From a virus (Duplodnaviria > Caudoviricetes), in IMG/VR virus record IMGVR_UViG_2974703250_000001, positions 13,567 to 77,566 of that record: 64,000 bases of DNA; one strand, written 5' to 3'. This document shows positions 2,343 to 42,236 of this stretch, piece after piece. Under the pieces are notes generated by a model. It made no database searches, was not told the origin of the DNA, and saw only the letters and a list, made by a program, of their open reading frames with translations. The translations under genes and the position numbers were made by a program. The first letter of the stretch is position 1; each line of letters opens with the position of its first letter.

Positions 2343-3230
2343 GTGACCGATTTTCTCAAGATCGAATTGATTGGTCGGGACGGTTCACACTGGGTGTTGT
2401 CCGGACCGGGCATGGGTCAGCAGGGCGTAACCCTGAATCCCAATTTGCAGCAGTTCTACGACGCACCGGTTAAGACGCTTTACGTTCCGGGGCCGTTTGG
2501 CGAGGAATACGCGGGTAAGCGCGTTCAGCGCCGCGAGATTGTGTTCTCAGTTCAGGCGTATGACGAAGACCCGGACACATGGAGCACCGTCGATTCCCTT
2601 TGGCGTTGGGCCTGGGATTACGACGAGGAGTCAGAGCTAAGGGTTACCACGAGTGACGGCACCCGCTTTCTAAAGGTGCGCCTCATGGAGGAACCCAAGC
2701 CGTATTACGAGAAAGACCCGCATATCACTGCGGATAACCCAATCGTGATGACGGTTACGGCGACGTTCCCGTATTGGCAGGACGAGCCGGAAGAACTTAT
2801 TTGGACGACGCTTAGCACCGAGGACATGACGCGCTTTCCAGTGCGGAATGACGGCGATGTTCCGGTGTGGCTTAAGTGGACGCTCACCGCGCCGGGTCTG
2901 TGGATTCTGCCGGACTTCTCGTGGGCGAACGACATGTACTCGCGCGGGCGTGAGGACTTGGGCCGGACTGTTGCGCTCCCGGAGCTGGTCTCTGGTGAAC
3001 ACGTCTCGGTCGATTCAGACCCGCGCGTTCAGACGCTTATCGCGGTCAACGGGATGCCGACGCAGAACCGGTGGAAGGGCAATGACCTGCTCTATCCGCT
3101 GATGCCGGGTAAGGGCGCGGAAATCCCTGTGCAGCTTAAGAAAGCGCCGGAGGGCGGGGCTTGCAAGTTGACGCGTCCGCGCTGGTATTCGCGTCCGTGG
3201 TCTCGGCCAGGGGTGCGTCTCAATGGCTAA
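2343..3230 (+). CDS. Minor tail protein (distal tail/Dit-like)
   Basis: First gene after the TMP; 295 aa; sequence resembles mycobacteriophage minor tail proteins. Confidence 0.8.
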   Translation: MTDFLKIELIGRDGSHWVLSGPGMGQQGVTLNPNLQQFYDAPVKTLYVPGPFGEEYAGKRVQRREIVFSVQAYDEDPDTWSTVDSLWRWAWDYDEESELRVTTSDGTRFLKVRLMEEPKPYYEKDPHITADNPIVMTVTATFPYWQDEPEELIWTTLSTEDMTRFPVRNDGDVPVWLKWTLTAPGLWILPDFSWANDMYSRGREDLGRTVALPELVSGEHVSVDSDPRVQTLIAVNGMPTQNRWKGNDLLYPLMPGKGAEIPVQLKKAPEGGACKLTRPRWYSRPWSRPGVRLNG

Positions 3231-4986
3231 CAACTGGACCGACATTCTCGCGGCTTCGGATGGCGATGAGTGGGCGGCATTCAAGACGATTGAGGCGCAG
3301 GCTGACGAGGTTCGGGCGGGGCACCAGGCGCTAAGGCGCGCTAAGCCGCTAATCCGACTTTGGATGAACAACCCGGACGGCTCGGAAGGGCTGGTGTACG
3401 TCGGACGTGTTGATTACGACGATACGATTCGCGGCTCATTCCCGTTTAAGAACAACACTCCGTCTCAGGGCGTGTTGGAACTGCGGGATGACAACTATCT
3501 AGCGGTCTGGCTTAAGCAGCTACCTAACAACCCTGAGCTTAAAAAGAACGTCGTTATCACGGTCGACTTCTACGGCGGTAAGAAGCGGTGGAGTGGACTT
3601 CTCGATAAGTGGACGATTAAGTCAAAGGAGCACGTTAAGTACCTAGAGGTCACTTTTAACGATGACCTCACTATGTTGCAGTATCTTTTGTGCCCGCCGA
3701 ATCCGGCATTGCCAATTCCGGTCCTACAATTTCCACGCATTTTCGGAATTGCTGGACCTGCAAAATGGGCCATTTCTACCCTAATTTTTATCAACCTATT
3801 TCGAGTTCAGGGTAACTTGTGGACTCTGCCGGATGACCCATTCAACTTGGAGTCTTGGGACGACATTCTGGATTGGTCGGATTGGCAGTGTTTCGTTAAG
3901 TCTGATTCGTTCCTGCTGGACGATTCTTCTGTTTGGACGTTCCTGTCCTCGCGGATGAATCCGGTGGACTCGATTATCGCTGACGCGTTGGATGATGCGC
4001 AGTTGACGATCACTTACCGGCGTGTGCTGACTGATGACGGTGAGACCGCAGAGGGATTCCCTGGCGCTCATGGCATTAAGAATGGCGCGCTTGTCTTTGA
4101 GATTGTCGATAACAGCAACGCTACGGCTCTTGAGGGCACGTTCTTCTCGGGCACGATTGTTGACGGTTTCGCGCGGTCGGTGCTGCTTTACGGCGGCGGG
4201 TTCGTCGAGGACACGCTAAGCGTCGTTAGCGACGACCAGACGTTGCAGCCTGACGAGTATTACCAGTCCGGGTGGCTGGCGACTATGGCGAAGATGCCGT
4301 GGCTCGTGGTCCGCGACAACGAATGGACGCCTATTGAGTCGTCTGATCTGTCGTGGGGACCGGCTAAGAACGTCAGCGTCATTGTGGGTGGCGATAACCC
4401 GGCTGCCGATGCCATTGCGAAGCTCATCATTGAGACGACCGGAAACCTGCTGGGGTATTTCCTGCTAGGTGGCTTTAGCTCTGCGGGCACGATTGCCGCA
4501 GACATCATTATGCCGTTCTTGGTCGGCACTATCGCGGCGTGGTTGCAGTGGAAGAACACGGGCCGGGCGACGGAGCTTGGTTGGGTTCATTACTGGGAGC
4601 TGTACCAGCAGGGCGCGGAAAGCAATAGCTGGTCGCTAGCTGCTTTGGCCGCTTTGCGTGGCGGGTTCCTGGTGGGACGCAGCGAGACGGTTCACCTAAT
4701 GGCGCTGCATGACTCTTGGATTATTCCGGGTCTGCATATCGACATTGGTCAGCGTATGGGTTCGACGGTCAATTCTAAGGGCGTCGAGAACATCGTTTGG
4801 GTTAACCAGCTAGAGGAAATGACCGCTGCCTGGGATAACACGGCGGGTCAGCCGATGCCTCTTTCTTGGGTGCTTAAGGCCGGTAAGTCGGAACGTGCCA
4901 TGTCTATTGGTGAACGGGTCGCGCGCTTGGCAAAGAAGATGAGCGAGGCGCTGAACAACGTGGGTGTCCACATTGTTCAGAGTTAA
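3223..4986 (+). CDS. Minor tail protein (baseplate hub-like)
   Basis: 587 aa; second gene after the TMP; RLWMNN...GRV and PLPIPVLQFPRIF segments resemble D29 gp28-like proteins. Confidence 0.8.
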   Translation: MANNWTDILAASDGDEWAAFKTIEAQADEVRAGHQALRRAKPLIRLWMNNPDGSEGLVYVGRVDYDDTIRGSFPFKNNTPSQGVLELRDDNYLAVWLKQLPNNPELKKNVVITVDFYGGKKRWSGLLDKWTIKSKEHVKYLEVTFNDDLTMLQYLLCPPNPALPIPVLQFPRIFGIAGPAKWAISTLIFINLFRVQGNLWTLPDDPFNLESWDDILDWSDWQCFVKSDSFLLDDSSVWTFLSSRMNPVDSIIADALDDAQLTITYRRVLTDDGETAEGFPGAHGIKNGALVFEIVDNSNATALEGTFFSGTIVDGFARSVLLYGGGFVEDTLSVVSDDQTLQPDEYYQSGWLATMAKMPWLVVRDNEWTPIESSDLSWGPAKNVSVIVGGDNPAADAIAKLIIETTGNLLGYFLLGGFSSAGTIAADIIMPFLVGTIAAWLQWKNTGRATELGWVHYWELYQQGAESNSWSLAALAALRGGFLVGRSETVHLMALHDSWIIPGLHIDIGQRMGSTVNSKGVENIVWVNQLEEMTAAWDNTAGQPMPLSWVLKAGKSERAMSIGERVARLAKKMSEALNNVGVHIVQS

Positions 4987-35239: not shown

Positions 35240-36100
35240 ATGGCCGTTCATCTGAGGGCTTACAACGAGGAACTGGGCACCGTCCGTGATGTGGCGGTGC
35301 CCTTTCAGTTTCCGGGTGGCGAATGGGACTTGAAGCAGGTCCATGAGTTCGACCAACGGGTGACATGGGTTGCGGACGTTCGCGGTGCTGACCTTAACGA
35401 CCTAATGGCGGCAGCTCTGCTGTCTAACGTCGCTGTGCAGCGTGGCGAGGACTTCGTTCTGATGATTCCGTACTTGCCAGCGGCCCGTGCGGACCGGGGC
35501 CACCCGACCGGGTGTGTCCCGTACGGCAACTTCATCTCGTCAATGGGCGCGTCGGGGATCATTACCGTTGATCCACACTCGCGCCGCATGCCGGACTACC
35601 TGGGATTCCAGGCTTCTACCGTCACGGCGCTGGACCCACTGCCGCTGCTGGACAGGGCTTTGGAGAGCCAGGGCCACTGGCGGTACGACGCAATCATTGC
35701 GCCAGATAAGGGCGCTGTGGATCGCGCTGGGGTCATCGCTAAGCATTACGGGCTAGACCTGGTTGTTTGCGACAAGGAACGCGATTTCGACACGGGCAGG
35801 ATCACCAAGTACAAGGTGCCGATCCTGCCTCGTAGCGGTAAGTACCTGGTGGTCGATGACATCTGCGACGGAGGCGGGACTTTCGCGCTGCTGGCTAGTG
35901 AGGCGCTTATCTCTAAGCCCAACCTAGACCTTTGGGTTACGCACGGCATTTTCTCCGGTAAAGCAACCATGCTGCCGAGTTACTACGGGCGCATTATGAC
36001 GAGTGATTCACACCCCGGCCATAACCGGGTCGGTGTCGCTACGTCGATTGTTCCCACTTTCACCTATATGCACGAAACGATGGTTAAGGGGCTTAAGTGA
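35240..36100 (+). CDS. PRPP-synthetase-like protein; candidate ADPR-PP synthetase (Adps) of NARP1
   Basis: [55 protein letters not shown]. Confidence 0.88.
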
Positions 36101-36513
36101 GCACGAACTATTCGCCTATCCAGTGGCCGGTGGCCGAGACGCTGCTAGAGCGGCAGGCGATCTTCATTTATGAGGGTGCCCGGTTGCAGGCGGCAGCCGT
36201 TAACGCGCCGATCATTCCTGAGCCGTGGGACAAGCGCGATGAAGCTTTCAAGACGCAGTTCCTTGGTATCACGCAGAAGATGATGGGTCCGGACCGCTTC
36301 ACTGATCCGGAAGCCGCCCACGATTCGTGGTGGCGCGCATACGAAGCCTTGGGGTGGAGCTATGGCCCCGTTCGGGATACGGAAGCTAAGACGCACCCGG
36401 ACATGGTTCCTTTCGCTGACCTGGGCTGGGAGGAACGCATGAAAGACGCGGTGTGGATAGCGCTGTGTGAAATCGCCCGGCAGTGGATCGTGGAGGAAAA
36501 TCCTTATGAGTAA
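36097..36513 (+). CDS. Stand-alone RyR-domain protein
   Basis: AHDSW...[23 protein letters not shown]...ERMKD matches the RyR repeat consensus (H..W....GW.YG..RD...K.HP.L.P...L...K..D). Confidence 0.82.
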
Positions 36514-37990
36514 GTTTGCACCCGTTGCGGCGCTCTTTCAGACAGACGCGTACAAGCTGGGCCATATCGACCAGTACGCGCTTAGCGGGGAAGTGACCCG
36601 CGTCTATTCCAACTGGACTAACCGGAAGTCGCGCCTGCCCGGCGTGGATAAGGTGGTCCACTTCGGATTGCAGGCGTATATCCAGGCCCACTTGGTGGAC
36701 GCGTTCGAGCCGTTCTTTAAGACGCTCGACGAGGACCAGGTAGCGGAGCTTTACGAGGAACGGGTAGCGCAGATTCTCGGGCCGGACGCGGCTAAGAGTA
36801 TCGGCAGCGACCACATTCGGAAGCTGCACCGTCTGGGGTATCTGCCGCTGCGGTTTAACGCGGTGCCGGAGGGTACGGCGGTGCCTATCGGGGTGCCGTC
36901 GTTCACGGTGGAGAACACGCACCCGGACTTCTACTGGCTGACGAACTACGTGGAGACCGGCCTGAGTGCCGGGGTGTGGCAGGCCAGCACGTCCGCGACC
37001 ATTGCCCGCGAGTACCGCAAGGTGCTTGACGCGGCTGCCAAGCGGACTGGCGCTGATCCGGCGGGCGTCGACTGGCAGTGCCACGACTTCTCTTACCGGG
37101 GCATGTCGTCGCACGAGTCGGCGGCGTCGTCGGGGGCCGCGCACCTGTTGAGCTTCACGGGTACGGATTCGCTGGTGGCGCTCGACTGGATTGACCGCTA
37201 CTACGGCGGCGAGTTCGTCGCGGGCTCGGTCCCGGCTACGGAGCACTCGGTGATGTGTACCGGCATTGAGACGGTCGGGGAGCTTGAGACGTTCAAGCGG
37301 CTGCTGGACCTGTACCCGACCGGCATCGTTAGCGTCGTCAGCGACACGTTCGACCTTTGGGCCGTGCTGACTCGGTATTTGCCGACGCTCTACGGCCAGA
37401 TCGTGGGCCGGGACGGCAAGCTGGTTATCCGGCCCGACTCGGGCGATCCGGAGAAGATCATTTGCGGTGATCCCAACGCGCCCAAGGGTTCTAACGAGTG
37501 GTGGGGCGCTCTTAACCTGCTTTACGACACGTTCGGCGGGGTTAAGAACGACGCGGGCTACATCGAACTGGACTCGCATGTCGGCCTGATCTATGGCGAC
37601 TCGATCACGTTGGATCGCGCTAAGAGCATCACTGATCGCATGGAGAAGCTGGGCTTCGCGTCGTCAAACGTGGTGTTCGGCGTCGGGTCGTTCACGTATC
37701 AGCACAACACGCGTGACACGTTCGGGTCCGCGATGAAGGCGACGTGGGCCGAGGTCGACGGCAGGGGCTACAACCTGCTCAAGAACCCGGTGACCGACGA
37801 CGGCACCAAGAAGTCCGCGACCGGGCGTCTGGCAGTGCTGCGCGACCTGCAAGGGGAGCTGGTGCTTGTCCAGAACGCAGACCAGTACGACGAGTTCGCA
37901 TCGGAACTGCGTCCGGTTTGGGAGAACGGAAAGTTCGTCCTGAGGCAGTCATTCGCCGGGGTCAGGGGCACTTTAGCCCAGCAGAGCTAG
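36506..37990 (+). CDS. NAMPT-like protein; candidate nicotinamide ADPR-transferase (Namat) of NARP1
   Basis: [68 protein letters not shown]. Confidence 0.9.
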
Positions 37991-38090
37991 ACGGTTAAGT
38001 CCGGGTTTCCGGACGTTTTCGTGGGCATTGGGTACATGCGACGTACTGTTGTGTGTACCCAACAGCCCGACGAAAGAAAGGGGGTTGAAA

Positions 38091-39029
38091 ATGACTCTGA
38101 CTCTTACCGCAATGCGCGGTTATCCCGGCTCGGGGAAGTCGACTACGGCGCGCACTGTTGCTAATAACACGGGCGCGGTGGTGGTTTGTCGTGACGAGCT
38201 GCGGAACATGCTGCACGGCGTGTACTTCAACGATGGTTCTAACCATCCTAAGTCGCCTAAGGACTTTGAGGATGAGGTAACCATTGCGGAGCGTGCGCAG
38301 GTCGCAGCCTTTCTCAAGGCTGGCGTTTCGGTAGTTGTCGACGCTACGCATTTGGAGCCGTCTTACTTGCGTAAGTGGGCGAAGATGGCCTCAATGTACG
38401 GCGCTGACTTCGTGCGGGTCGATCACATCACGCCGGTTGACGAGTGTCGTAAGCGGGACCACGCCCGGATGCTCGCTGGTGGCCGGTACGTGGGTGACAA
38501 GGTTATCGAGAAGATGGCTAAGCGTCACCCGGTGAAGAACTGGCCGGATATTCAAGCGCCACCGACGTTCACGCCGGAGCCGGTTGAGTGGGAGCCGGGC
38601 CTGCCTACGGCAATCATTGTCGATATCGACGGCACGGTGGCGCACATGACGGGGCGTTCACCTTACGACTACAGCCAGGTCCATACCGACGTGGTTGATG
38701 AGCAGATTCGATGGCTGGTCAACACGGTTGAGTCCGAAGGCGTGTTCGTCCTGTTCGTGTCGGGCCGGGATGACGAGTGCCGGGAGGCTACTGAGAAGTG
38801 GCTTGCGGAAAACGGCATCGTCTACGACGAGCTGTACATGCGGCCTACCGGCGCTAAGGACAACCACGGGAACAAGCTGCCCGACTACCTGGTGAAGTCC
38901 GACCTGTTCGATAAGCATATTCGCGGCAAGTACAACGTGCGGTTTGTGCTCGACGACCGGGACCAGGTTGTGAACCTGTGGCGTGCGCTGGGCCTTAAGT
39001 GCCTGCAAGTTCAGCCGGGCGACTTCTGA
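38091..39029 (+). CDS. pnk: Polynucleotide 5'-kinase/3'-phosphatase (T4 PseT-like)
   Basis: GYPGSGKS P-loop, RDELR, VVVDAT; HAD motif DIDGT, SGRD, LDDR. Confidence 0.92.
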   Translation: MTLTLTAMRGYPGSGKSTTARTVANNTGAVVVCRDELRNMLHGVYFNDGSNHPKSPKDFEDEVTIAERAQVAAFLKAGVSVVVDATHLEPSYLRKWAKMASMYGADFVRVDHITPVDECRKRDHARMLAGGRYVGDKVIEKMAKRHPVKNWPDIQAPPTFTPEPVEWEPGLPTAIIVDIDGTVAHMTGRSPYDYSQVHTDVVDEQIRWLVNTVESEGVFVLFVSGRDDECREATEKWLAENGIVYDELYMRPTGAKDNHGNKLPDYLVKSDLFDKHIRGKYNVRFVLDDRDQVVNLWRALGLKCLQVQPGDF

Positions 39030-41601: not shown

Positions 41602-41823
41602 ATGTCTCACGAAAAAACTTCCGTGGTGCTGCGGAAGATTGATAAAGCGGCTCGGGTCCGGGGGATGACTTTTGTCCTCCGGCGTCCGGGCGGCAATCAC
41701 AGCATTTACGACCTCGACGGCCACATGGTGACGATTCCTAACGGGTCCAAGGTGACGCGGGTTGAGGCGACTTATCGGCAGTTGCAGGACAAGCTTGGGA
41801 GAGGTTGGTGGCGTGACGTTTGA
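41602..41823 (+). CDS. HicA-like dsRBD-fold RNase, no adjacent HicB
   Basis: LRRPGGNHSIY...VTIP motif with the catalytic His position. Confidence 0.65.
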   Translation: MSHEKTSVVLRKIDKAARVRGMTFVLRRPGGNHSIYDLDGHMVTIPNGSKVTRVEATYRQLQDKLGRGWWRDV

Positions 41824-42236
41824 CGCGTCGAATCTTAGTTACCGGTTCCCGCGATTGGGCTGACCGGAATCATGTTTTCTTAACGCTGTCTATCCATATG
41901 GTCGGGGTGGATTCGGCAGTGATCGTTCACGGGGATTGCCCTACGGGTGCTGATCTGTTCGCGGACGACTTTGGTACGCGCCACCCGCGTTGCACGGTGG
42001 AACCGTACCCGGCTGATTGGTTCAAGGCTTGCACTGACAAGTGCTATCACAAGCCGCGCCTTAAGGATGGAAAGCCGTATTGCCCGGTTCAGGGCTTTAT
42101 CCGTAATCAGAAGATGGTTGACCTGGGCGCGGACGTTTGTCTGGCATTCCCGCTTGGTAAGTCGCCGGGCACTCGTGACTGTATGCGCCGCGCTAAGAAG
42201 GCGGGCATTCACGTAATCAACTGTGGAGACGAATAG
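41820..42236 (+). CDS. SLOG-family protein (YspA/DUF2493-like)
   Basis: RILVTGSRDW, IVHGDCPTGAD, RNQKMVD.GAD.CLAF..G.SPGT.DC..RA.KAGI. Confidence 0.85.
   Translation: MTRRILVTGSRDWADRNHVFLTLSIHMVGVDSAVIVHGDCPTGADLFADDFGTRHPRCTVEPYPADWFKACTDKCYHKPRLKDGKPYCPVQGFIRNQKMVDLGADVCLAFPLGKSPGTRDCMRRAKKAGIHVINCGDE

Follow-up and report, generated by a model that had tools for sequence, protein, structure and literature searches.

A RyR-domain protein encoded between the Adps and Namat genes of a NARP1 operon is identical in sequence to RyDEP of mycobacteriophage DyoEdafos

RyDEP is a ryanodine receptor (RyR) domain protein encoded by gp78 of mycobacteriophage DyoEdafos, and its complex with 3'cADPR has been deposited as PDB entry 35TM (Lopez Rivera et al., bioRxiv 2026-05-29, PMC13232231). 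The 2'/3'cADPR immune signals are very stable, and RyDEP has been described as the first enzyme known to break them down. It works as an inverting glycosidase whose two catalytic residues are H75, which is the water-activating base, and D117, which is the acid, while the ligand is held by W78, which stacks on the adenine, and H100, which contacts the phosphates (PMC13232231). Lysates of M. smegmatis infected with DyoEdafos break down 2'cADPR, and this breakdown is not seen in lysates of a gp78 deletion mutant or of the related phage ChutneyChips, which is devoid of gp78. The purified protein converts 2'cADPR as well as 3'cADPR to linear ADPR, as judged by TLC, LC-MS and NMR, its multiple-turnover kinetics have already been reported, and mutants of H75 and D117 are inactive. 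The 1.7 Å crystal structure shows a homodimer with the product bound (PMC13232231). When expressed in B. subtilis, RyDEP allows SPO1 and SBSphiJ to plate again on type VI and type I Thoeris, an effect that is lost with H75A. The recombinant DyoEdafos Adps and Namat proteins make NAD+ from ADPR and nicotinamide, and together with RyDEP they make it from 2'cADPR (PMC13232231). Eight homologues of RyDEP have also been tested, none of which cleave the signals and six of which bind them (PMC13232231). All of this functional evidence comes from one preprint in its first version, which is not yet peer reviewed, and the anti-Thoeris activity was demonstrated in B. subtilis, not in mycobacteria. The available part of the preprint text does not report whether His-ADPR or NAD+ itself is turned over, nor how the deletion phage fares on mycobacteria that carry Thoeris (PMC13232231).

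The ORF described here lies on the plus strand of the window, the 64,000-nucleotide stretch of viral DNA that was analysed, at positions 36097-36513. It starts with GTG and its translation of 138 aa is identical to chain A of PDB 35TM at 138 of 138 residues (E 3e-95 in a PDB sequence search), an entry of 139 aa that carries the title 'Ryanodine receptor Ryr domain-containing protein'. H75, W78, H100 and D117 occur in the translation at exactly the published positions, and the gene order Adps-RyR-Namat agrees with the description of gp78 as 'inserted within a NARP1 operon' (PMC13232231). With all 138 residues, the place between Adps and Namat and the residue numbering alike, no difference from DyoEdafos gp78 was detected. 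The ORF is therefore assigned, with a probability of about 0.95, to RyDEP, the homodimeric inverting glycosidase that cleaves 2'/3'cADPR and feeds NARP1, and nothing in the sequence speaks against this assignment. An earlier note, made from the letters alone, had proposed that the RyR protein turns the cADPR-type signals of TIR/Thoeris systems into ADPR, thereby silencing the signal and feeding Adps, and that the three genes form a counter-defence and salvage unit making NAD+ from such signals. Both proposals have been published for the identical protein, and the recent reports on phage RyR proteins that the note mentioned do exist (PMC13232231). The interpretation was thus correct yet already known, since the published function belongs to the identical protein, and beyond minor survey points there is no new discovery here.

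At the level of protein families, the HMM search against Pfam RyR (PF02026) that the earlier note had suggested gave a match of 33.3 bits (E 5.8e-8) over residues 72-117, which is above the curated gathering cut-off of 27.4 bits. A six-frame search of the 77,566-bp genome with the same profile gave the same result at 33.5 bits and no second RyR match. The match spans profile positions 26-71 of 91, and because it is limited in this way the 'full RyR-repeat signature' claimed for the protein is slightly generous as to 'full' and right as to the RyR core. Homology nevertheless extends beyond the core, as phrog_5154 and two further PHROGs of unknown function jointly match residues 42-127 and the PDB match covers the whole length. 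The protein has the R12-like helical fold of the RyR domain (PF02026), and the PDB search also retrieved the Repeat12 chains of RyR1/2/3 (E 1e-9 to 1e-12) and a B. thetaiotaomicron protein (E about 3e-5).

The gene is flanked on both sides by the genes of NARP1, all on the same strand. Upstream lies Adps (35240-36100, +, 286 aa), the first NARP1 gene, which encodes a PRPP-synthetase-like ADPR pyrophosphokinase that matches Pfam Pribosyltran at 28.2 bits and phrog_619, ribose-phosphate pyrophosphokinase, at E 4.9e-72. Downstream lies Namat (36506-37990, +, 494 aa), the second NARP1 gene, which encodes a NAMPT-like nicotinamide ADP-ribose transferase that matches Pfam NAPRTase at 124.7 bits and phrog_448, nicotinamide phosphoribosyl transferase, at E 5e-191. 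The two are joined by overlaps through RyDEP: the TGA stop of Adps (36098-36100) lies across the RyDEP GTG start, the two genes sharing the four nucleotides GTGA, and the TAA stop of RyDEP (36511-36513) falls within the first codons of Namat. The Namat start is most likely the ATG at 36506 and not the GTG at 36467 given by the mechanical ORF list, as Namat is annotated from the homologous codon in phages Bromden and Aegeus; the RyDEP/Namat overlap is therefore eight nucleotides, ATGAGTAA. The 138-aa ORF between a PRPP-synthetase-like and a NAMPT-like gene, with stop and start codons overlapping on both sides (4 nt and 8 nt), is thus present as the earlier note had it. Two Shine-Dalgarno-like sequences can be read on the plus strand, AAGGGG at 36086-36091 within the 3' end of Adps, five nucleotides before the RyDEP GTG, and GGAGGA at 36492-36497 within the 3' end of RyDEP, eight nucleotides before the Namat ATG, and both are putative in function. 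The overlapping stop and start codons suggest that Adps, RyDEP and Namat may be co-translated from one mRNA by translational coupling. An Nmnat-type adenylyltransferase (PF01467) gave no match in the whole 77.6-kb genome, whereas 14 of 14 control genomes matched, and NARP1 therefore fits rather than NARP2. A search of the genome for a Tad2-like gene (PF11195) also found none.

RyDEP acts as a homodimer with a single RyR repeat of the R12 type, in which W78 and H100 line the pocket for the Thoeris second messengers 2'cADPR and 3'cADPR. Their cleavage to linear ADPR stops Thoeris signalling, and this product is in turn the substrate for NARP1, with Adps making ADPR-PP and Namat coupling ADPR-PP to nicotinamide. 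As the flanking Adps and Namat use the product, the alarm molecule is recycled to NAD+. RyDEP would presumably also benefit the phage in its native mycobacterial host; tools for studying Thoeris in mycobacteria are, according to the authors, lacking (PMC13232231).

The nearest records to the genome are mycobacteriophages of the Lclasvirinae (Vilmaviridae), Bromden, Douge and Chaser among them, with 88-91% nucleotide identity. These three phages are without a RyDEP gene, and the Bromden Adps runs with its stop straight into the start of Namat, the two overlapping, a situation that parallels the published contrast between DyoEdafos and ChutneyChips (PMC13232231). The 2751-bp locus aligns with that of Bromden in two pieces which cover 85% of it and, by this alignment, RyDEP forms a cassette that fits exactly between the stop of Adps and the start of Namat, either gained in the DyoEdafos line or lost in the Bromden-like phages. 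Namat shares 98.6% amino acid identity with Bromden gp75, as opposed to 89.5% for Adps with gp74, and similarity therefore shifts across the insertion point. Window positions 35240-37990 look mosaic around this point. A recent foreign origin was sought by composition, but the GC content (0.590) and GC3 (0.712) of RyDEP match those of the genome and the neighbouring genes, so that composition does not hint at a recent import. In a comparison with Aegeus, RyDEP is at 83% the most similar of the proteins compared, ahead of Namat (78%), polynucleotide kinase (PNK, 70%), DnaB (53%) and Adps (51%).

Two further genes lie in the vicinity of the operon. A polynucleotide kinase-phosphatase (AAA_33 and HAD_PNKP) is encoded at window positions 38088-39029 (+), about 100 nt after Namat, and is kept in Bromden and Aegeus; it differs from the macro-domain phosphatase Adpp of extended NARP1 operons. 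A stand-alone SLOG-type protein of 138 aa, with a match to YAcAr (PF10686) at 41.7 bits, is encoded at window positions 41820-42236 (+), downstream of the NARP1/RyDEP genes by about 5 kb. SLOG domains bind nucleotide-derived ligands, and a role of this protein in signal handling is therefore conceivable.

RyR-type genes were found by tblastn in 239 of 50,697 phage records, of which only two are close to RyDEP, namely Aegeus and Baudelaire, both phages of M. chelonae. Their orthologues share 81-83% identity with it and also lie between Adps and Namat; Aegeus gp81 (locus L002, positions 3001-3411) and Baudelaire gp81 both carry the label 'hypothetical protein' and keep the four key residues. In IMG/VR, 10 close relatives were collected, followed by 79 loci by profile, and flanks of 4-5 kb were searched with the Adps and Namat of the window. 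This survey of RyR genes in NARP1 loci, likewise an idea of the earlier note, found recurrent linkage that is confined to relatives of at least 67% identity. Besides those of Aegeus and Baudelaire, the NARP1-linked orthologues (67-83% identity) come from three IMG/VR contigs, one of which has a different gene order. The order Adps-RyR-Namat occurs at three loci, L003, L004 (the same as L017) and L008 (the same as L028). A second gene order is seen in contig IMGVR_UViG_3300012942_000036 (L018:682-5399), where Adps is followed by about 1.9 kb of small ORFs without a Pfam match, then by Namat and directly, with a 4-nt overlap, by a RyDEP relative of 67% identity. No Adps or Namat was found within the 4-5 kb flanks of relatives of 64% identity or less, a set comprising L005, L006/L007, L009-L012 and most of L019-L095 (30-64% identity). 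The neighbours of the 56-64% relatives are a lipase-like protein, an HNH endonuclease, a PDDEXK-like protein, a DNA methylase and proteins of unknown function, and a search for NAD-related neighbours beside these relatives found none.

All 15 relatives that were aligned, 11 of them close, have H75, W78, H100 and D117 unchanged, down to 28% identity. A Ruegeria phage, a Kuttervirus and a Gordonia phage likewise keep them in their homologues, which share 28-32% identity. Since these residues are invariant and the eight homologues tested do not cleave, the residues alone cannot predict hydrolysis. This caution concerns the annotation of orthologues and does not apply to the ORF in the window, which is the characterised enzyme. 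For annotators it means that conserved catalytic residues are by themselves no guide to whether a protein is a hydrolase or a sponge.

The same evidence bears on whether RyDEP could act as a sponge only, sequestering 2'cADPR and 3'cADPR without turnover as its homologues from the Ruegeria and Pectobacterium phages do. Binding without cleavage is the behaviour of the majority of the homologues tested (PMC13232231), and as distant homologues, that of the Ruegeria phage among them, carry the same set of catalytic and ligand residues, enzyme and sponge cannot be told apart by sequence alone. This role is nevertheless very improbable for RyDEP itself, as it was the identical sequence that yielded linear ADPR by three methods, was inactivated by mutation of H75 or D117 and was crystallised with product (PMC13232231). 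Less probable still is a role as a regulatory subunit that senses ADPR or ATP and tunes Adps or Namat, with cleavage of cADPR as a side activity. The tight embedding of the gene, with overlaps on both sides, would suit such a subunit, as would the binding of adenine nucleotides as regulatory ligands by the R12 domains of animal RyR and the ADPR product that remains bound in the RyDEP crystal (PMC13232231). However, close relatives possess NARP1 without RyDEP, distant relatives with the same residues are found away from NARP1 genes, and RyDEP on its own saves unrelated Bacillus phages from Thoeris (PMC13232231). Both roles were rejected on the strength of the published experiments on the identical sequence (PMC13232231).

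RyDEP converts an alarm molecule to NAD+ and ties phage counter-defence to the ligand-binding domain of animal calcium channels. What is added here is the confirmation of an inference made from sequence only, a list of unannotated orthologues and the confinement of the NARP1 linkage to the closest clade. A joint hypothesis that may be built on the survey, and which we regard as tentative and on balance doubtful, is that the NARP1-linked RyDEPs (at least 67% identity) form a distinct clade of glycosidases which became linked to NARP1 in two or more gene orders, that their catalysis depends on features other than the invariant H/W/H/D residues, and that they have wider substrates or hand ADPR over to Adps. 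An example of a determinant that decides between catalysis and sponging would be the N-terminal half, which is specific to the clade and contains a P-I-(I/V)-P-E-P-W segment. Other ADPR-based substrates of RyDEP might include His-ADPR, N7-cADPR and canonical cADPR, and RyDEP might form a complex with Adps and pass ADPR to it directly.

The closest described counterparts of RyDEP are the sponge-type homologues H4 and H7 of a Ruegeria phage and a Pectobacterium phage, each a single RyR/R12-like domain with nanomolar binding of 2'/3'cADPR and anti-Thoeris activity (PMC13232231). Domain, ligand and anti-Thoeris activity are common to these proteins and RyDEP, but the sponges do not hydrolyse the signals, prefer 3'cADPR, are only about 29% identical to RyDEP and do not lie beside NARP1. 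Orf53 of Ruegeria phage DSS3phi2, the putative H4 equivalent, is located between the N4-like DNA polymerase and gp42-like genes, and in the alignment it conserves the equivalents of H75, W78, H100 and D117. The Repeat12 domain (R12, PF02026) of animal RyR1/2/3 has the fold and the ligand residues in common with RyDEP but occurs as a tandem repeat pair within a calcium channel of roughly 5000 aa, and the available parts of the cited papers report no glycosidase activity for it. Tad1 and Tad2 are anti-Thoeris sponges that remove gcADPR signals. They share their target with RyDEP, but their folds are unrelated and they only sequester. Adpp is a macro-domain phosphatase that acts on ADPR-1''-phosphate, a product of aRES (Osterman et al., bioRxiv 10.64898/2026.01.28.702374). 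Like RyDEP it is the product of a third gene in a NARP1 operon and turns an ADPR derivative that is not itself a substrate into ADPR, from which Adps and Namat rebuild NAD+, but it does so as a macro-domain phosphatase, whereas RyDEP is a glycosidase with an RyR fold that acts on cyclic signalling molecules.
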